A stretch of 64,000 bases of DNA from an uncultured virus (IMG/VR IMGVR_UViG_3300036770_002019) (Duplodnaviria > Heunggongvirae > Uroviricota > Caudoviricetes > Crassvirales): the IMG/VR virus record IMGVR_UViG_3300036770_002019, positions 1-64,000 of that record; one strand, given 5' to 3'. Position 1 is the stretch's first letter. Each line of letters begins with the position of its first letter. A program made the position numbers and the translations under genes. The notes under the pieces were generated by a model. It had not been told where the DNA came from. It did not search any database and was given only the letters and a program-made list of their open reading frames with translations. Below, piece after piece: positions 3,215 through 55,401 of the stretch.

Positions 3215-3339
3215 AAACAATATCAAACATAAAGCAAGACAGAAATGTTAGTAGACCTAACATTCACTCTAAAACAAAAACTAGTTCTAACAAAAACTCT
3301 AAGAACTACAGAAAACCATATAAAGGGCAAGGACGATGA
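3211..3339 (+). CDS. Small basic protein, 42 aa (not in the ORF track)
   Basis: MKTISNIKQDRNVSRPNIHSKTKTSSNKNSKNYRKPYKGQGR; ATGA overlaps with the genes on both sides. Confidence 0.7.
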   Translation: MKTISNIKQDRNVSRPNIHSKTKTSSNKNSKNYRKPYKGQGR

Positions 3340-3695
3340 ACCTAAAACATTTCAAACTCTCAGAATTCGACTCCCCAGACCTACCAGGTTCAGGGGAAAG
3401 AATGGATGAAGACTTTCTTAAACTACTAGACAAAGCTAGATCAATAGCTAACACCCCATTCAAAATTAACTCTGGGTATAGAACACCATCTCACAACAGT
3501 AAAGTTGGGGGAAAATCTAGTTCTTCTCACTTAAAAGGAATGGCTGCTGACATTCATTGCAATGATGATGCATCCAGATCTTTAATCGTACAAGCTCTAA
3601 TAGAAGTTGGGTTTACTAGAATCGGGATAGCTAAAACCTTTATTCACGTAGACAATGATAAAGCTAAAAATTCTAATCGTATTTGGGTTTATTAG
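3336..3695 (+). CDS. Peptidase M15 family (M15_3-type) zinc peptidase, probable endolysin
   Basis: SGYRT..HN..VGG...SSHLKGMAADI and FIHVD motifs. Confidence 0.9.
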   Translation: MNLKHFKLSEFDSPDLPGSGERMDEDFLKLLDKARSIANTPFKINSGYRTPSHNSKVGGKSSSSHLKGMAADIHCNDDASRSLIVQALIEVGFTRIGIAKTFIHVDNDKAKNSNRIWVY

Positions 3696-4440
3696 TTTAT
3701 CGTTATTCTCTCAATGTGAATACACACATATAACTTCTCTCCCATTCTCAGAAACATTCTGCCACGAGTATAATGACTGTAACTTTGTCGCAAATATTTA
3801 CACAATTAACGACAACGACTACGGCTGTTGGAGTTGTATTAACAACCCTCATTACTACGTAATAACCCCAGAGGTAGATATGTACGTAGTTCTAGATATT
3901 GTACCTAACCTATTCAGTCATTTTTCATCAAATACTGAACCACAAGTCCCAGGTTTTATACTGTTTAATGGCTGCCCAAATAACGGGGGAGAAACATTGT
4001 TTAGACCGTGGAGCTATTCAAACGGGGCTTGTTGGAATTGGGGTGTTTTAGACATTTACTGCGGATGGAGTCAATCAACAAATGCCCCTAATCTTAATCA
4101 AGGGTGTGTAACTTCTACCCCAAGTTATACAGGAATGGCTCATGAAGTAACTATGGGTTTTAATTTACTAGCTAACAACGAGTACTGGTTCTGCGTCTAC
4201 CCTCAAGGCGGTTGCCCACCGTTTACCTCAACATGTAACTGGGGATGCATAGACGTAAGCTTTTCAGGATTAACATTTCTTGAACTAAACAACTACCCCC
4301 CAAGTAACCCCCAAGTACCTACTCAAGATACTAGTACACAGCCTCGTTTTGTAAAGCTACATATACCGAACATAGGAATAATTATCAGAGACACTCAAAC
4401 TGGGAAAACCTACAACACACTAATGCAAGAAGTTAATTAG
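3655..4440 (+). CDS. Secreted Cys-rich protein with a signal peptide
   Basis: N-terminal MIKLKILIVFGFISLSLFSQC; many Cys and Trp residues; Pro/Thr linker before a short C-terminal tail. Confidence 0.7.
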   Translation: MIKLKILIVFGFISLSLFSQCEYTHITSLPFSETFCHEYNDCNFVANIYTINDNDYGCWSCINNPHYYVITPEVDMYVVLDIVPNLFSHFSSNTEPQVPGFILFNGCPNNGGETLFRPWSYSNGACWNWGVLDIYCGWSQSTNAPNLNQGCVTSTPSYTGMAHEVTMGFNLLANNEYWFCVYPQGGCPPFTSTCNWGCIDVSFSGLTFLELNNYPPSNPQVPTQDTSTQPRFVKLHIPNIGIIIRDTQTGKTYNTLMQEVN

Positions 4441-47766: not shown

Positions 47767-50700
47767 ATGGCAACTTGTCCTAATAGAAATTTAAAAGCTT
47801 GGAAAGATTTAGAAGCTGTTCAAGGAGAATCAATTGCATTAGCGATATGGGATAGATTTGATGGTCGTCCCCCAGAATTCTTTTACTCTACCCCACTTAA
47901 AGAGGGGACAGTAATAACAAAAGGATTTGATGTTCAGACTAGATTTACTGAGGAGCAGAATAATGCTATTCTTGATAGTATTATCTACATGCTCATGGAG
48001 CAAAAAAAGCAAGAAGGCTTTAAGATAGAAGAGCAAATTGGAAATAAATCCACCAAAGGCTCTATCCCTAATTTCTTTCTGCAGCAAGCTTATGAGAATG
48101 AAAATGGAACAGCTGTTAGTTTAGAAGTAGCAGAATCTATTTGGGGGAAAGAGCAAGCATACGAAACGGCTGTAAGAGAAAATCTCCCAGAAGAAACTCA
48201 AAATGCATTGTATGATGAGTGGGTAAATGCTATGGAAGAATCAGATGTTTATGAATCTGAACACCCAGCACGTGAAGCCTTTCTTGATATTTATGAGTTT
48301 TGGAATGGGGGTATTATTACCACAGGTAAAACAGAGAATGAAGTAAAATCTGACATAGCTTTAGGTAATATAGATATTGTTGGGTGGAGAGAACTCCTAT
48401 CTAATAGAATTAAAGAGTTTGGGTATTCTATCTCAAACGTCGAACAAGAGGTAGAATTTGCATCAGACGAGGACATACTAGAAAGAATCTACAGTAAAGC
48501 TAGTATGGAAGAAGACCCTTCAAAAAAATTATCTGGGAGGATGAAAGAGCTATTAGCTACTATCCCTAACAGACAATTAAATTTCCTAGGGTTAGCTAGT
48601 TATTTACCTGCAGATCAGATATATAAAGAACTTGCTACAACATTTGCAGGGTTGCAGAACTTCCCTGAAATGCTTGCTCAAGTAGAGACATTAGCATTAC
48701 ATAAACCTCAGTACGAAGCGGTGTCTGAGTTTATGAAAGGATTGAATAAAAAAGATGCTGCAGCTTTCAGTAGAATCTTTGCACAATCTGCAAATGAGTT
48801 TTTGTTGATTAGAGTAGAAGCTAAAACTCCTGCAGGAGATGTAGTTAGAATATTTAACCCAAACGAAAACAGGATTGAGAGATCTATAGCTACTACTTGG
48901 AAGAACGGAGCTGTAGAATCTAACATAGCTAAACCAAAAGCTATCTACAAAGTAACAGAGGAAGGCCTAGAAATAGATCAAAATAAAGCTAAAGCTATTG
49001 CAGAAAATTGGTTATTGGTTAGAAGAGGTATTGCAGGTGTAGATTCGGTATCATCTACTCAGGGGGAGATATCTAAACCTGTACAAGCTCTAACTGATAT
49101 GCTGTGGAATATGGGGATATACTTAGGTGACCCAGAGATTAAACAAGAAACAGCCAATAACCTACAACAAGTTGTAAATACAGGAATATTTGTAGTAGAG
49201 AAAGGTAGAAGACAAAAACTTACAGGTAGAGCTGCTTATAACTACATTGCAAACAAAGAGGGTAAAAGCTTAGCAAGACTTGTATCTCAATTTGTAGTAC
49301 TTAGCCCTGATGGAACTAAAGTTGAAAAAACTTTACGAACAGTTTCCACTACAATGTATGAGTCTCAAGGCTCAACAGTAAGACACTTAGCATCGTTTGC
49401 CCCATTGTTTTTTGAAATGCGTGGGGATAGTTTTGTTAATGGGAAAGGTAAACAAATCTACCCAATTAATTTACGCCATCATTTAGGTCAAGTATTTGAA
49501 ACTCTTGGGAGTTCTACAGAGGATAAAACTAAGATGATGGATATGTATAGAGAGGATAAATTCTTTGCTCCTGTAGAAGGGAAAAATGAATTTGACTCTA
49601 TACTTTTTAGACTTCTACAATCCCCAGAATTTACTAATGAGTTTAGAGCATTTGATTTAGATGCCCTCAAAGATGTTACTATTCCTGATGGTACTGTAGA
49701 TTACGAAAACTTCTCAAATACAGACTCTCTACGCACAAGATTAATTGCATACATCAACTCAGGTAATAGATCTACAGGATTAATTGCTATCCCTATTCAA
49801 TCTGATAGAAAGAAGTTTACTTTCTTCCCATTTGTACGTACAAAAAATTTAGCTGGTACACGAAAAGGTACTTTTGGGATAACAGGGATGACTAAAAACG
49901 ACATCATACTTGGACTTATAGTGCAAGATATGATGCGTATTGCTCATGGTAGAGGAATTCTTAGCAATCAAGTAACTGAAGACGGACTCCCAAACCCACC
50001 AAAAGACCTTCCTGAAACGTATAAAAAGAATTTAAGTTCCCCAAAATCTATGCAATTTGATGGGACTTTAGTTGGGTCAGAAGGTAACATCCCTATTGTA
50101 ACAGATGCTAGGCTTGAATCTAAAACTGGGGAATACTTCATTAGTGATTACATAGAAGAGTTTCTAACTGATCCAGAAGAGCTTAGAGACATTGAACCAG
50201 AAGTATTTAACGAAATACAGACTAAGATCAATGTAATGGTTGAGAGAGCTAACGAATACTTTCTCAACCAAGCTAAGATTTTAGATACTAAAATAAAAGA
50301 ACAAGGGATAACTCTCCCAACAGAGGCACGAGAGTTTGGGGATAGAATGTCATTACTTGAAAATTATGTATTTGATGAGTTCTTAGGTAGAAACGAGATA
50401 TCTAAAATACTTAGAGGTAGTAGAGCTCACGTAAAAGATATTCAAACCTTTTACAAAAGAGTTGGGCATGCTACTACTCCTGGGATGGAGGTAGCTTTAG
50501 CATCAGATTTAGCTATAAATGGATTGCAGGAAGTAGATGGGATAAGCAACTATGGGATGCCTGATACTTTTATAGAAGCTACTTTTAATGATATTAAGCT
50601 TAACTTGGATGAAGAGATGCGTACACGCGCGATAGAAAGAGCTGAAGCAATTCGAGACGGACTTATTGAAGCTGGGTATGATGCTGATTTTGCACAGTCA

Positions 50701-53700
50701 ATGGCAGAAGAATACATGCCTAATGAAGTAGAGGGTACAGACGCACAGGGGTTGATTTCAATAGATTTCTATAGAGATCTAATGCAAGGTAAAGGAGAGT
50801 GGACAATCAACGAAGAGAAAGCTTACGATGCATACAAACAAGCACCCGAAGGAAGTAAGCAATTTGTATATCAAACAGGCTTTACCCCACAAGGATTTAA
50901 ACCAGGAGATGCAGTACCTTTTTATCCGCAAAAACCTTACTATGAGTACAATGAACTTGTAGGTGGGGTTGTTACGACTGACTCACATAAAAACTCTTAT
51001 CACTTACTATTAGAAGGGGAAACAAAAAGTAACCCTGTAAAAGACAATCTAAGACGGAGAATGGAGGCTGTTGGAGAGTATGCAGGCTTGCAACGTATTG
51101 GGGTAGCTAACTTTGTAACAGCAAAGAAGATTAAGATCAACAAGGTTAATACTTTGACTGATAAAGTTGGTGGGCTATCTAATGTAGGAACTAATACAGT
51201 TAACAGTAGAGGACTAAGATTCCCTCAAGAGATCCCAAAAAAGAAAGCTTCTACTACAATGTTTAACCGTCAGGTTAGAAAGAATACAATATCGAACATT
51301 GATCCTAATCACACGTACACATTAAATGCGGGGTTAGATACTGAAATAAAAATATCAGGCCAAGAAATGCTTGATATGTATCACGCCGCTATAGAACGTA
51401 AAATAGAACTAGAATTTAAGCAAGTAGAGAAAGAGCTTGGGGTAGATAAAATACAGAAAGCTTTAGCTAAACAAGATGTTGAAGAGTATAATGCAGCTTT
51501 AACTTCATTTCTACGTAAGCTTAGAGATAAGATTAAAGACAATAACATTGAAAGGGATCTCCCAACTAACTATGATGCTGGGTTAAGAATTGAGTTAGAT
51601 GAAGCTGGGAGACCTCAATACCAAATTCCACTAGACTTCCCTATATACTTTGAAAAGTATGAAAGAGTACTCCTTGGGATGGCTGTTAATGCTGCATTTA
51701 AACAGAAAGTTCCAGGAATGGAGGCTGTGCAAGTTGCAGAAATTGGGGGATATGCTGAATCTGGGGAGTTAAACTTTTACGAAATCCAAAAAGATAAATC
51801 AGGTACCCCAAGAGTAGTTCACATGGAGGTAATGATTCGTGAGGATATAGCTCGTAAATTTGGGTTAGAGCCTGGACAAGACTTAGACTCACTCCCAGAA
51901 GAACTAAGACGTATTATAGGGTATCGTATCCCCAACCAAGGAAAATCTTCTACAGTAATAATGAAGATTAAACGAATCCTACCAGCTAATTATGCAAAAG
52001 CTGTTATAGTTCCTGCTCAATTAACTAAACTCACAGGATCTGACTTCGATATTGATAAGATGTTCTTGATGTTCCCAGAAGTTAGACAAACAGATGCTGG
52101 ACCAGTTAAAGTTCGTCCTCCTTATGAGGGGATATTAGGAAAAGCTGTCCAGCCTGTAGCGGAATCAATTAATATTTATGCAGGAGATAATCAAAATGCA
52201 GATTTAAGTAATTTCGCAATTCGTCCTTTTGTTGTGCAGGGCGTGGAATACAAATCTGTAGAACAATATTTCCAATCTAAAAAGTTTGAAATTGCCGAAG
52301 TTCTTGAATTTGACACACAAGAAGCTGCTGATAAAGTCTTTGCAATAGCTGATAAGATTATGGAGACATCTTCTGGAGCGCAGTTAAAAAGACTAGGAAA
52401 CACAAGAATACCAGGCGTAACTTTTAACGAAGAAAGTTGGAATGTATATGGAGAAGAAGCCATGTATGTGGGTATTTATGAAAGTTTTAATCAGAACCCA
52501 GAAGCAAGAAAACGTTTATTACAAACAGGCAATGCAGAACTAACCCACAAACAAGATAAATCTAAGTGGGGGAAAAAGTTCCCTGAAATACTAACTAGAG
52601 TTAGGGAAGAACTTAAAAAAGAATATCCGCAAGATGTACCTATAAAACCAACCCAACCTTCACAACAAGATTTAAGCACTCCTACTGCTATCAAACCAGG
52701 AGTAGAAAAATTATTTGATTCTAATCCTGAATTAGCTAATCAAGTATATGAAGCTTTGGGGTTTGATAATTTTACTAATCAGGAAAAAGAAACCTTAATA
52801 GCACAATTAAGAAATCCATTATTTGATTTAGTAAGAGGTACTGAATTGTATAATAAATATAAAGGAGAAACTATACCTTACGGCTATTCAGAAAATTCTT
52901 GGAAATTACTTATTTCTGGAATAACTGAATCTAAACTAGATTTAAATAAAATTTTATTAGGTTATAAACAAAGACTTTTAGAAGAAGAAAACACACCTAT
53001 TAGAGAAACAGGTATTGACGAAAAAACAGGATTACCAAAAGGATTTAATCCTTCTACTGGTGCATTTGAAGGAGGATTTGGAGAAATTTCAGAAAAAGAA
53101 AATGCAATAAAAACTTCTAAAAATAAAATAAATGTTTTAAATAAATTTATACAACAAAAACAACAAGCTCTACAACTATACTCTCAATACTTAGATACAG
53201 GTAAACAAGATATAGAAGGATTTAAAGATTTTGCTAAATCTCCACTACAACAAGATATAAGCATAGATAAAATAACAGATATATCTATCCTAAACAATAT
53301 CATTTTAGATGTAGTAGAAGCTGTTCAAGCTAATCTACTCCACGTAAATGAATCTATGGCTCCATTAGATGAATCTACTCTACCTAGATTAGTTGCAGAT
53401 ATTGAAGCTAAATTCCCAGAATTACAAGCCCCACTAGAGTTTGCTAGTGTAGACATTGAGACAGAAATGGGGATACGAAATACTATAGGTAGAGCTATGC
53501 GTGGATTGTGGGCTAACTTTATAGCTGGTCATGCTGTAGCTGCTTTTGGGGATATTGTAGTAAATGCTAACTACGAATTAAATTTAGATGGGAAAGCATA
53601 CCCAAAACTTATAGGAGTTGCAGGGCAAGAAGTTGCAGAGTTCGACAGAGGAGTTCCTATTAACATGATAGGTTCTAGATACTTATCTGCCGCAGTAGAT

Positions 53701-55401
53701 GCTGCTAAAAAACCTTATCAGTATACACTTAATGATAGAACTTTTACTTACCCTATAGAAGCTTATTGGATGGCCTTCTCTGGGGATACAAAAGCGCTGC
53801 ATGATTTCTTGAATGTCCCAATCATAAGACAGTTTACTGATTTGTTTTATACAAAGTATGGAGCCAAACCTATACTAATGGAGAATGCACTATTAGATGT
53901 TATCCCTAAAATGTATAAAGACAGCTTGAAAGAAGATAGGTTACGTCCAGCTACCTCAATGACAAGAGAAGAACTTGCAAACCCACAAGATCTTCCTCCT
54001 GCTAGACAGTACGAGCTGCTATTAAACATGTTAAAGTTTAGAGAGGCTGGTAGATCTATGACTCAAATGTTTAAGGTTATTGCCCCAGATTCTATGGATG
54101 GTATGAACAGCATAGATTCTATTAAATCATACAGAAGTAGACAGAATCAGTTTAACCCTAACATTACAAGCCCAGAAAATCAAATCTTCATAAACCCAAA
54201 TGCTCCTTTAGAGCCTGTAGTAGATCAATTTATAGGACAAGTAAGTGTATATGGAATGCAGAGAGGGTTTTCTAATCTCTTTTTGGATATTGCAGATATG
54301 GCTGCTAAGATATTCCCCATGACTGTATCCCCAGCTATGGATAATCTGGACATGAGAATAATGGATTTAACTGGGAATACACAATTAAATCCTGAAGCGC
54401 ATAGAGATATTAGAAGAGCAGCTATGCTAAGTGTATTTGCTCAAGAAGAATCCCCATTAAGAGAATTCTTCAGTGATACGCACCTAAAACTAAACTATCT
54501 AAACAAGGATAGTAACTTGGTTACAAAGCTCAGGGACTTGAAAGTAAAGTATCCTAAACTTGCAGAAAACTTGTTTATTAGAAAGTTTGTGGAGAACAAT
54601 GATAATGACCTCCCAGAAACTAAAGTGTTCTTGTTAGATTTCGATACATCTTATCAAATGACTAGGTTTGAAAAAGATGCAGTAACTTTAGCAGCATACA
54701 GATTACTTAAACGACCAGAAGAAGTTGTTGGGAAAGATGCTTCGATAGAAGATAGACAATCTATAATAAACTTAGCTGAAGATCTGTTGATGAACACATT
54801 AATAGTTCATGGGTTTAAACAAACGACTGGTTCATACCAAGATCTTATACCTGTAACATTCTTTACAGATAATAGGTTTGCACGTTACAACAATCCTGGG
54901 GAAAGACTTGGATCCCCAGTTAAATACTTTAGACAGCAGATGACTTCTATGTATACCATAGATACTTTTGATAACTTTGCAGTAGATTTTATACGCCAAA
55001 GCTTTCAAACGTCTCCTGGTGGATACACATTAGTCCAAGGTATACGAAAGAAAGCAACACCTAATGAAATCGTTTTAAGTGATAAAGACAAGATTAGAAT
55101 GTACAGAAATGGGTACCCAATTCCTTTTATTACAGTGACAAACTCTACAACTAACGAAACATTCTTGTACGCATCTGGTCATATTTTAACTTCAGGAACT
55201 GTAGAAGGAAAGTATGTAAAAGTTAATCCTTTAGGGGTAGACAGTAAATTAATAGAAGCAACAAACCCTGATAAGTCTGTAATCAATGAACAAGGATTAC
55301 CACTATCATCTATTGTTATGACTTCTACAACTACAGGAATTTCAACTAATGCAGGCTCAATAGCCTCTACAGAGAACCAACAATCTATAATCTGCAAATA
55401 A
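47767..55401 (+). CDS. Virion-packaged DNA-dependent RNA polymerase (crAss-like double-psi beta-barrel type) with inserted domains
   Basis: TDAQG, GYRIPNQG, catalytic GSDFDIDK (Asp at 52042), AAVDAAK; 2544 aa. Confidence 0.92.
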   Translation: MATCPNRNLKAWKDLEAVQGESIALAIWDRFDGRPPEFFYSTPLKEGTVITKGFDVQTRFTEEQNNAILDSIIYMLMEQKKQEGFKIEEQIGNKSTKGSIPNFFLQQAYENENGTAVSLEVAESIWGKEQAYETAVRENLPEETQNALYDEWVNAMEESDVYESEHPAREAFLDIYEFWNGGIITTGKTENEVKSDIALGNIDIVGWRELLSNRIKEFGYSISNVEQEVEFASDEDILERIYSKASMEEDPSKKLSGRMKELLATIPNRQLNFLGLASYLPADQIYKELATTFAGLQNFPEMLAQVETLALHKPQYEAVSEFMKGLNKKDAAAFSRIFAQSANEFLLIRVEAKTPAGDVVRIFNPNENRIERSIATTWKNGAVESNIAKPKAIYKVTEEGLEIDQNKAKAIAENWLLVRRGIAGVDSVSSTQGEISKPVQALTDMLWNMGIYLGDPEIKQETANNLQQVVNTGIFVVEKGRRQKLTGRAAYNYIANKEGKSLARLVSQFVVLSPDGTKVEKTLRTVSTTMYESQGSTVRHLASFAPLFFEMRGDSFVNGKGKQIYPINLRHHLGQVFETLGSSTEDKTKMMDMYREDKFFAPVEGKNEFDSILFRLLQSPEFTNEFRAFDLDALKDVTIPDGTVDYENFSNTDSLRTRLIAYINSGNRSTGLIAIPIQSDRKKFTFFPFVRTKNLAGTRKGTFGITGMTKNDIILGLIVQDMMRIAHGRGILSNQVTEDGLPNPPKDLPETYKKNLSSPKSMQFDGTLVGSEGNIPIVTDARLESKTGEYFISDYIEEFLTDPEELRDIEPEVFNEIQTKINVMVERANEYFLNQAKILDTKIKEQGITLPTEAREFGDRMSLLENYVFDEFLGRNEISKILRGSRAHVKDIQTFYKRVGHATTPGMEVALASDLAINGLQEVDGISNYGMPDTFIEATFNDIKLNLDEEMRTRAIERAEAIRDGLIEAGYDADFAQSMAEEYMPNEVEGTDAQGLISIDFYRDLMQGKGEWTINEEKAYDAYKQAPEGSKQFVYQTGFTPQGFKPGDAVPFYPQKPYYEYNELVGGVVTTDSHKNSYHLLLEGETKSNPVKDNLRRRMEAVGEYAGLQRIGVANFVTAKKIKINKVNTLTDKVGGLSNVGTNTVNSRGLRFPQEIPKKKASTTMFNRQVRKNTISNIDPNHTYTLNAGLDTEIKISGQEMLDMYHAAIERKIELEFKQVEKELGVDKIQKALAKQDVEEYNAALTSFLRKLRDKIKDNNIERDLPTNYDAGLRIELDEAGRPQYQIPLDFPIYFEKYERVLLGMAVNAAFKQKVPGMEAVQVAEIGGYAESGELNFYEIQKDKSGTPRVVHMEVMIREDIARKFGLEPGQDLDSLPEELRRIIGYRIPNQGKSSTVIMKIKRILPANYAKAVIVPAQLTKLTGSDFDIDKMFLMFPEVRQTDAGPVKVRPPYEGILGKAVQPVAESINIYAGDNQNADLSNFAIRPFVVQGVEYKSVEQYFQSKKFEIAEVLEFDTQEAADKVFAIADKIMETSSGAQLKRLGNTRIPGVTFNEESWNVYGEEAMYVGIYESFNQNPEARKRLLQTGNAELTHKQDKSKWGKKFPEILTRVREELKKEYPQDVPIKPTQPSQQDLSTPTAIKPGVEKLFDSNPELANQVYEALGFDNFTNQEKETLIAQLRNPLFDLVRGTELYNKYKGETIPYGYSENSWKLLISGITESKLDLNKILLGYKQRLLEEENTPIRETGIDEKTGLPKGFNPSTGAFEGGFGEISEKENAIKTSKNKINVLNKFIQQKQQALQLYSQYLDTGKQDIEGFKDFAKSPLQQDISIDKITDISILNNIILDVVEAVQANLLHVNESMAPLDESTLPRLVADIEAKFPELQAPLEFASVDIETEMGIRNTIGRAMRGLWANFIAGHAVAAFGDIVVNANYELNLDGKAYPKLIGVAGQEVAEFDRGVPINMIGSRYLSAAVDAAKKPYQYTLNDRTFTYPIEAYWMAFSGDTKALHDFLNVPIIRQFTDLFYTKYGAKPILMENALLDVIPKMYKDSLKEDRLRPATSMTREELANPQDLPPARQYELLLNMLKFREAGRSMTQMFKVIAPDSMDGMNSIDSIKSYRSRQNQFNPNITSPENQIFINPNAPLEPVVDQFIGQVSVYGMQRGFSNLFLDIADMAAKIFPMTVSPAMDNLDMRIMDLTGNTQLNPEAHRDIRRAAMLSVFAQEESPLREFFSDTHLKLNYLNKDSNLVTKLRDLKVKYPKLAENLFIRKFVENNDNDLPETKVFLLDFDTSYQMTRFEKDAVTLAAYRLLKRPEEVVGKDASIEDRQSIINLAEDLLMNTLIVHGFKQTTGSYQDLIPVTFFTDNRFARYNNPGERLGSPVKYFRQQMTSMYTIDTFDNFAVDFIRQSFQTSPGGYTLVQGIRKKATPNEIVLSDKDKIRMYRNGYPIPFITVTNSTTNETFLYASGHILTSGTVEGKYVKVNPLGVDSKLIEATNPDKSVINEQGLPLSSIVMTSTTTGISTNAGSIASTENQQSIICK
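52168..52620 (+). other. NADAR (YbiA-like) domain inserted in-frame in the virion RNAP
   Basis: LSNFAIRPF...YKSVEQYFQSKK...LKRLG...W...M...SFNQNP..RKRLLQTG.AELTH...W...L..VREEL. Confidence 0.8.

Follow-up and report, generated by a model that had tools for sequence, protein, structure and literature searches.

A giant gene of an uncultured crAss-like virus encodes an RNA polymerase (RNAP) of the virion-packaged type, and within its reading frame, shortly after the catalytic motif, lies a cassette carrying a NADAR ADP-ribosylhydrolase domain. The gene is part of a 64,000-nucleotide stretch (the window; positions 1 to 64,000 of IMG/VR record IMGVR_UViG_3300036770_002019). That a real NADAR cassette sits within a virion-type RNAP we regard as close to certain. 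For its function we give an even chance to a single proposal, taken whole and with its mechanism included: that the injected polymerase bears a competent NADAR in a modular array of cassettes, as a pre-made eraser of base-linked ADP-ribose (ADPr) on phage DNA and/or early RNA.

The window, with a GC content of ~0.36, covers 64 kb at the start of a virus record of 86,682 bp, complete by CheckV. Genes for the large terminase, portal and major head protein, recognized by PHROG profiles, lie on the + strand upstream of three giant + strand open reading frames (ORFs) in a row, of 2036, 2544 and 1521 aa. The product of the middle one, P0001, matches chain A of 6vr4, the gp66 polymerase of Cellulophaga phage phi14:2 (E 9.9e-16), with aa 1100–1440 aligned to chain residues 1058–1389 and a second stretch, aa 1965–2062, aligned to residues 1613–1711; its aa 864–1442 give tblastn matches to annotated RNAPs of crAss001, crAss001 relatives and phi14:2 at 23–25% identity. 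By these alignments the product of 47767–55401 is a crAss-type virion RNAP, and the window phage is a divergent crAss-like phage. The account of gp66 describes a polymerase that is packaged in the virion, translocated with the DNA and used to transcribe early genes, that transcribes single-stranded DNA (ssDNA) in vitro, and that has a DFDID motif with a role in catalysis and a trigger loop at residues 1598–1636 (10.1101/2020.03.07.982082). From this homology, and from the place of the gene in the structural gene block, we infer that P0001 is packaged and injected as gp66 is. The polymerase and its NADAR cassette are laid out as follows.

47767–55401, + strand: virion-type RNAP gene (P0001, 2544 aa), the middle of three giant genes and a phi14:2 gp66 homologue (ORF list, 6vr4_A match, tblastn).
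52042–52059, + strand: catalytic motif DFDIDK, aa 1426–1431, aligned to DFDID of 6vr4.
52147–52672, + strand: NADAR cassette of 526 nt, aa 1461–1636, which takes in the domain and the greater part of the Pro/Gln linker; delimited by a contig from metagenome run X7, and not in the relatives P0117, P0086 and P0015.
52192–52575, + strand: NADAR core as given by Pfam PF08719, aa 1476–1603 (Pfam match; fold Z 16.4 to 8bau).
52261–52263, + strand: codon of Glu1499, equivalent to T4 AdfN E36, P. nicotianae E43 and E. coli C7 E88 (alignments).
52282–52284, + strand: codon of Lys1506, equivalent to T4 K43, P. nicotianae K50 and E. coli C7 K95 (alignments).
52546–52548, + strand: codon of His1594, at the position of P. 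nicotianae Glu125, a phage-type His variant as in T4 gp30.3 (alignments).
52621–52698, + strand: Pro/Gln-rich linker, aa 1619–1644, with 6 Pro and 4 Gln in 26 residues (translation, alignment).
53254–55401, + strand: RNAP resumes, aa 1830–2544, with the segment that aligns to the trigger-loop region of gp66 (84–85% identity to P0117 residues 1470–2184 and P0015 residues 1718–2451).

The initial annotation had placed an apparently complete NADAR-like domain at 52168–52620 (aa 1468–1618 of the 2544-aa ORF), about 35 residues after DFDIDK and followed by a Pro/Gln linker, and each part of this description holds, the first conserved block lying 37 residues beyond the motif. Pfam NADAR (PF08719) is matched by the whole protein at E 6e-14, with 53 bits against a cut-off of 35.1 and profile positions 9–131 of 163 covered; the excised domain scores 59.8 bits, and a genome search 58.2 bits. 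PHROG 1017 is matched at E 2.6e-18, and the sole meaningful phmmer matches in the PDB are YbiA (2b3w, E 3.6e-7) and a Phytophthora NADAR (8bau, E 0.025). An AlphaFold2 model, built on an alignment of the domain with 11 short homologues, reached a predicted local distance difference test score (pLDDT) of 91.8 and a predicted template modelling score (pTM) of 0.87, and the structure prediction suggested as a check thus returned a fold of the YbiA/8bau type: VIA-align, which is independent of Foldseek, paired it with 8bau_A, an ADPr-bound NADAR structure, at Z 16.4 (root-mean-square deviation (rmsd) 2.4 over 145 aa), then with YbiA 2b3w (Z 14.8) and 8bat (Z 9.2), the next chain being unrelated at Z 4.3, and the Foldseek outcome agrees. 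As modelled, the NADAR domain is complete, and the match is far beyond chance.

Published work has mutated the catalytic Glu and Lys of NADARs, T4 AdfN and the E. coli C7 NADAR among them, and the same papers describe His in phage NADARs at the P. nicotianae E125 position (PMC11543638, PMC11825919). The profile match above cut-off and the presence of Glu1499 and Lys1506 speak to the two failures, a missing profile or missing catalytic residues, that the initial annotation had named as grounds for giving up the assignment. Across the NADAR domains of giant proteins, Glu and Lys are each kept in 117 of 117 and His in 116 (the remaining one is a gap); that all three persist at a median identity of only 42% to the window domain is a pattern that fits active enzymes. 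With its Glu, Lys and His intact, the domain is probably catalytically competent.

The relatives of P0001 show where the domain begins and ends as an insert. A search with aa 1400–1700 returned 315 giant proteins at E<=1e-3, the best 120 of which were used for BLASTP and for domain counts; the counts of giant proteins that follow refer to these best 120 of 315. P0117 (2184 aa) is 84–85% identical to P0001 over aa 1–1458 and aa 1830–2544, with ~11 residues in place of aa 1459–1829; P0086 (66–67% identical) has no insert at the site, and P0015 (84% identical) carries a different 259-aa insert at the identical point. The comparison of orthologues that had been proposed as a check therefore yields two polymerases without the insert and one with other modules. 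Metagenome contigs tell the same story at nucleotide level. Contigs of four runs (X4–X7) were aligned to 51800–53600; no RNA run was among those listed, and runs X5–X20 account for small shares only. An X5 contig of 924 nt, from another study, goes from 52141 to 53247 by way of 16 other letters, which leaves it 363 codons shorter and in frame, and differs from the window at 17/342 and 3/337 positions of its flanks. A 315-nt X7 contig passes from 52146 to 52673 through a single other letter and is shorter by 525 nt (175 codons) on balance: it loses exactly the NADAR cassette and then continues directly into the second foreign block, module 2. The flanks of these insert-skipping contigs are 95–99% identical to the window, and no contig of runs X4–X7 covers the NADAR interior at 52288–52653.

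Altogether, 371 aa of foreign cassettes start 27 residues after DFDIDK, in a probably permissive loop, ahead of the bridge-helix/trigger-loop part of the polymerase, at a point equivalent to about gp66 residues 1390–1395 by linear extrapolation from the 6vr4 alignment; the NADAR core begins 9 aa past the junction with RNAP sequence. Because orthologues and contigs without it exist, the NADAR domain is a true insert, gained later. The initial annotation had argued the same point from glycine codons, and here the counts stand (GGA 4, GGC 3, GGG 1 of 9, GGT 1, against 118/16/140/90 in the remaining RNAP and two neighbouring giant genes; Fisher p 0.16 for GGG and 0.008 for GGC) but are weak as evidence of acquisition. 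The GC (0.349), GC3 (GC at third codon positions; 0.225) and codon log-likelihood of the NADAR segment fall at the 21st, 25th and 36th percentiles of 151-codon windows of the same gene. We accordingly set codon usage aside as proof of a foreign origin for the NADAR, its GC, GC3 and codon fit being ordinary for the gene; composition is convincing solely for module 2.

Fusion of a NADAR to this type of polymerase is recurrent. A NADAR profile is found in 116 of the giant proteins and an RNAP core in 114, and both are present together with the motif in 110. In 44 of these 110 the NADAR lies N-terminal of the motif, mostly ~1680 aa upstream, and in 66 it lies >700 aa downstream, often at the extreme C-terminus; in none does it follow within 150 aa. 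Such a fusion was met in a single deposited crAss-like genome, that of the uncultured phage cr126_1 (MT774391, Kolpuevirus hominis), in protein QOR59539.1. An exhaustive profile-free search with the domain gave 1151 cluster representatives at E<=1e-3; the best 150 of them include 88 proteins >1000 aa, of which 54 have a DFDIDK-like motif, and none of the 54 has the arrangement seen in the window. Among 158 loci from IMG/VR and metagenomes, which are cut at their flanks so that distant domains are missed, 142 ORFs have the core and motif and 6 have a NADAR. Two of these six, L016 (ORF residues ~1374–1549) and L115, have a NADAR that starts 28 aa after DFDID and gives way to more polymerase sequence; being 99.7% identical, they represent one phage, whose RNAP is 28.5% identical to that of the window. 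There is no insert at this site in 68 of 69 relatives with a detectable downstream block. Placement just after the motif is therefore rare, although at least two distant lineages have either evolved or retained it.

P0001 holds one recognizable effector, the NADAR, along with module 2 and the polymerase; relatives add helicase, kinase, ADP-ribosyltransferase (ART) and AlkB-type domains. The AlkB-type PF13532 stands beside NADAR as a precomputed label on 2 of the 120 (P0018, P0065), and PF18760 (ART-PolyVal) accompanies NADAR without a helicase in 5 (P0007, P0020, P0021, P0053, P0059) and with one in P0088 and P0103. P0077 and ~40 proteins like it (~3800–4150 aa) have a PIF1/AAA_30 helicase, a Kinase-PolyVal domain and a NADAR ahead of the RNAP core; one such polyprotein is labelled at source solely as 'ATP dependent DNA helicase [Crassvirales sp.]'. 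Family-level relatives come mostly from marine or other aquatic metagenomes, as judged by contig names and run labels. IMG/VR and Joint Genome Institute (JGI) metagenome contigs, sets from which records near the window may be excluded, hold no relative above ~30% protein identity.

Outside the giant polymerases, the closest free-standing homologue of the domain is P0122, a 159-aa protein of Trichomonas vaginalis G3 (TVAG_227690) that is 52–54% identical. Nine of the 11 short NADAR homologues (P0123–P0131, but not P0122 or P0132) end in Cys followed by 0–3 residues (K, N, T, IK, NK, VPF), much like the Cys-Lys C-termini of the window's giant proteins; these endings may represent a shared terminal signal, or the proteins may be fragments of giant genes. 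In P0136 (3678 aa) the first third of the NADAR domain is matched in 45 separate stretches, suggesting a long tandem array of a NADAR fragment.

Between the NADAR cassette and the resumption of the polymerase lie a second module and the marks of further exchange.

52662–52678, + strand: 17-nt direct repeat, copy 1 of 2 (family D2; the copies are 94% identical, with a spacing of 585 nt or 195 codons; repeat search).
52673–53246, + strand: module 2 and conserved junction peptides, very AT-rich (composition, similarity to P0111, contigs).
53199–53203, + strand: abutting junction peptides, an empty slot where relatives hold an ART-PolyVal-like module (P0015, P0007, tblastn, X4 contig).
53247–53263, + strand: second copy of the 17-nt repeat, at which the X5 empty-site contig resumes (repeat search, contig).

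Module 2 is compositionally foreign (aa 1637–1829: GC 0.275, GC3 0.073), and aa 1632–1811 are 85% identical to residues 477–656 of a different giant protein, P0111, which bears a PD-(D/E)XK domain; searches of Pfam, NCBIfam and PHROG assigned it to no family, and its best Atlas score, 0.82, is beneath the usable level. The 17-nt repeats bracket it in frame. At two junctions, 52693–52770 and 53151–53240, many contigs align with high summed depth and have other sequence in between, an X4 contig having 405 other letters where the window has 390. Both junctions are conserved in nucleotide sequence (>=85%), and the many contigs with other sequence between them come from freshwater and other metagenomes, a picture that would suit recombination sites held in common. 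A strict pattern places the junction peptides in just 4–5 of the 120 giant proteins, besides 1 locus; they are not universal.

At 53199–53203 the two flanking peptides abut in the window, and in P0015 a module (residues ~1625–1720) that aligns to the ART-PolyVal region of P0007 sits between the same peptides; the loose end of an X4 contig behind 53198 likewise runs into the start of an ART-like module. P0007 itself holds, in series, a NADAR (3275–3409), a module 2-like block (3589–3802) and ART-PolyVal (3812–3935). The same slot is thus occupied by an ADP-ribose writer in P0015 and adjoins an eraser in the window phage. Taken together, P0117, P0015, the window and the contig variants indicate that the slot can hold nothing, NADAR with module 2, or another module with an ART-like domain. 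With more doubt than belief, we put forward a broader proposal: that the loop after the catalytic motif of injected crAss-type RNAPs is a plug-in slot, with nucleotide-conserved junctions across diverged phages, where whole effector domains (a NADAR eraser, an ART-PolyVal-like writer, other modules) would be swapped by recombination as a re-assortable counter-defence payload, and where the NADAR would act co-transcriptionally on the ssDNA template or emerging RNA.

The eraser proposal to which we give an even chance would work as follows. A polymerase packaged in the virion and injected with the DNA would bring the NADAR into the cell ahead of all phage gene expression. Once inside, the domain would hydrolyse the N-glycosidic bond between ADP-ribose and a nucleobase, guanine or possibly cytosine by published NADAR chemistry. 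Its substrate would be phage DNA in single-stranded form and/or nascent RNA bearing the marks of a host ART defence toxin, for which DarT1 is one candidate; the template would stay readable and the first transcripts usable. The chemistry and the counter-defence role on which the initial annotation drew are borne out by the reports cited here: NADARs, DarG1 included, take ADP-ribose off guanine, and those of phages are able to counter DarTG1 (PMC11543638, PMC11825919), restoring plaquing in its presence (PMC11825919). In those reports every NADAR subtype tested removes guanine-ADPr from DNA (PMC11125620), guanine-ADPr is also removed from RNA, with the T4 NADAR among the active enzymes (PMC11833690), and cytidine-ADPr is removed by some NADARs (PMC12945103), while thymidine-ADPr is not reversed (PMC11125620, PMC11825919). 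The AlkB-type domains beside NADAR in some relatives likewise fit a role in nucleic-acid base repair.

Several points weigh against this proposal. T4 AdfN, which has the same His variant, is reported not to have neutralized DarT1 on its own in uninfected cells (PMC11825919, PMC11125620), and Iyer et al. 2022 make the case that small ADPr derivatives are the main targets of phage NADARs (PMC9503650). DarT1-associated NADARs are described with an N-terminal extension proposed to form an ssDNA groove (PMC11543638); the window domain is without this proposed ssDNA-binding extension, its model aligning to 8bat residues 48–202 only, and does not match PF22397 (NADAR-DarT1) even at E<=10. A host scan of genome contigs with the RNAP gave only distant matches in metagenome-assembled genome (MAG) bins of unrelated taxa and named no host to which a cognate toxin could be tied. 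The giant protein may also be proteolytically processed, in which case 'tethering' to the polymerase would fail. Adjacency to the active site is challenged by the relatives, in most of which the NADAR is far from the motif, 700 or more aa after it or ~1680 aa before it: the site next to the active centre may be only a permissive loop, and the recurrent theme appears to be delivery with the polymerase rather than proximity to DNA opening. The earlier idea of an eraser tethered to the polymerase that opens the DNA thus survives in that the domain is in frame within an injected-RNAP homologue, but proximity may not be required.

A narrower version, also put forward by the initial annotation, makes the domain a DarG1-like antidote to DarT1 that would free phage ssDNA of guanine-ADPr while the polymerase is opening it. 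It has published DarT1–NADAR chemistry and the AdfN precedents behind it (PMC11543638, PMC11825919), and substrates would coincide, as gp66 transcribes ssDNA in vitro and DarT modifies ssDNA (10.1101/2020.03.07.982082 for gp66). The AdfN family itself, PF08010 (Phage_30_3, T4 gp30.3 family), is matched at the borderline, with 29.4 bits for the whole protein and 36.5 for the excised domain against a cut-off of 36, and the AdfN His variant is common to both. An identity of the DarG1/DarT1 type, however, does not hold up: besides the missing PF22397 match and N-terminal extension, the third catalytic site of the domain is occupied by His, not Asp, and PADLOC matched no DarG model, only the candidate-system NADAR model PDC-M42C. 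The phage genome of 86.7 kb gave no match to PF14487 (DarT), a profile whose control is silent in all 14 control genomes, and no Macro domain was found in it.

The distribution of DarT bears on the same question. As a proxy we took 401 sampled Bacteroidota genomes, the host phylum being only presumed, and found DarT in 34. A neighbour of 341–369 aa stands beside DarT in 25 of 27 loci inspected, and Pfam Macro is found in all 7 such neighbours tested; a Macro partner beside DarT is the arrangement of thymidine-specific DarTG2, whose modification NADARs are reported not to reverse (PMC11125620, PMC11825919). PF22397 is above cut-off in 1 of the 401 (G121), adjoining a DarT match, which places DarT1-type pairs in Bacteroidota, and one sub-threshold PF22397 remnant lies beside a stop-containing DarT match. 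In a Pseudomonadota sample DarT occurs in 22/401, and two low-scoring DarT loci (G705, G706) have PF22397 neighbours at 307 and 243 bits, so the models can see DarTG1; PF14487 scores these two confirmed DarT1 loci at only ~E 1e-18 and may not find every DarT1 toxin. Adjacency of DarT to PF08719 (0/34 in Bacteroidota, 0/22 in Pseudomonadota) was dropped as a test, as DarT1-associated NADARs form the separate family PF22397. DarT1 is thus a possible target, but a rare one in the presumed host phylum, and the DarG1-like antidote is in our view unlikely. In one Bacteroidota locus (L435; G214:C1:1269600-1275200) the gene that comes after one of the DarT family codes for a 524-aa protein whose domain is neither Macro nor NADAR but an ADP-ribosylglycohydrolase (ARH/DraG-type, PF03747); this may be a third kind of DarT partner.

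We think it likewise unlikely that the substrates are small ADP-ribose-derived molecules, whether immune signals or toxic NAD+ breakdown products, with the NADAR as cargo on an injected protein. Iyer et al. 2022 proposed this for phage Macro, NADAR and Nudix domains, often virion-packaged (PMC9503650), and both the varying position of NADAR among RNAP polyproteins, which fits a cargo that needs no closeness to DNA or RNA, and the missing putative DNA-binding extension would suit it. Yet the NADARs assayed in the reports cited are active on base-linked ADPr in DNA or RNA (PMC11125620, PMC11833690), we found no published NADAR activity on cyclic ADPR signals, and the AlkB-type domains in some relatives point to nucleic-acid repair.

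It is less probable again, and in our judgement improbable, that the NADAR serves as the self-immunity partner of a phage ART-PolyVal writer that attacks host nucleic acid and has been lost in this phage. The consecutive NADAR, module 2-like block and ART-PolyVal of P0007, the seven giant proteins that pair PF18760 with NADAR, two of them with a helicase, and the ART-like module of P0015 that fills the slot empty at 53199/53203 all lend it some colour. ART-PolyVal itself, however, is not found in the genome, either with Pfam (control silent in all 14 control genomes) or by tblastn of three ART modules, which hit flanks only; most NADAR-bearing RNAPs among the 120 have no ART label, and here the catalytic residues have stayed intact with no partner in place. 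It is very improbable that the domain acts as a YbiA-type N-glycosidase on intermediates of the riboflavin pathway, or that it is a neutral passenger that contributes nothing to infection: YbiA is the best PDB sequence match (E 3.6e-7) and the YbiA equivalog TIGR02464 is matched at E 4.3e-15, but with 56.3 bits against a cut-off of 73.7, the YbiA-type Glu is His here, a virion polymerase is an odd site for a housekeeping metabolic enzyme, and a passenger would hardly keep its active site across 117 fused copies.

Phage NADARs have recently been shown to defeat DNA-ADP-ribosylating defence as free-standing proteins made after infection starts, whereas an eraser inside a polymerase that enters with the genome would act before phage gene expression. 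If our preferred reading of such an eraser is right, the finding is a pointer to defences that ADP-ribosylate bases among the phages' aquatic hosts. NADAR–polymerase fusions are common in uncultured crAss-like phages, at 110 of the best 120 giant proteins, and close relatives that differ by the precise presence or absence of a cassette offer a natural experiment, with a polymerase bearing no insert, a NADAR or an ART-like module. A defined slot in an essential injected enzyme would also give a concrete place for studying how large virion proteins gain and swap counter-defence domains. Phage NADAR counter-defence, the idea of virion-packaged NADAR and ART, and polyvalent proteins are already in print. 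We found no paper tying NADAR, DUF1768 or YbiA to crAss-like polymerases, although supplementary tables (of PMC11825919 and of crAss-like surveys) may list fusions; the sole co-mention that we opened was an unrelated gene table.

Among known systems, the domain stands closest in several respects to T4 gp30.3/AdfN (PF08010), an anti-DarTG1 factor: both are phage-encoded members of one fold family of ~150 aa, E36 and K43 align with E1499 and K1506, and His replaces the usual acidic third residue in each. They are only 24% identical, however, and AdfN is a free-standing early protein where the window NADAR is an in-frame insert in an injected RNAP. With DarG1 (PF22397; G. lovleyi 8bat, DarT1-associated) the domain shares the NADAR core (Z 9.2, rmsd 3.7 over 139 aa) and the catalytic Glu and Lys; it differs in the family profile, N-terminal extension and third catalytic residue already described, and, with no DarT gene found beside it or elsewhere in the phage genome, it is not part of a toxin–antitoxin pair.

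The carrier resembles phi14:2 gp66 (6VR4) and crAss001-type RNAPs in its DFDID and core, giant size, place among structural genes and membership of a trio of giant genes, but gp66, crAss001, P0117 and P0086 have no insert after the motif. It also recalls the polyvalent proteins (Iyer et al. 2017; 2022 survey, PMC9503650), described as large virion-delivered multidomain proteins that mix effectors, and ART-PolyVal and Kinase-PolyVal domains occur in relatives of P0001; here, by contrast, the carrier is an essential early RNAP, whose catalytic half, and not an accessory protein, houses the effector. That survey of NAD and ADPr systems calls NADAR often virion-packaged and viral NADARs 'typically standalone', and mentions crAss 0 times (PMC9503650). 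The nearest deposited counterpart is QOR59539.1 of cr126_1, an RNAP homologue of 2402 aa with DFDID at 1509 and a NADAR 43% identical to that of the window; its NADAR is N-terminal (aa 50–210), ~1300 aa ahead of the motif, and the record names it just 'DUF1768 domain-containing protein', leaving the polymerase unnamed.

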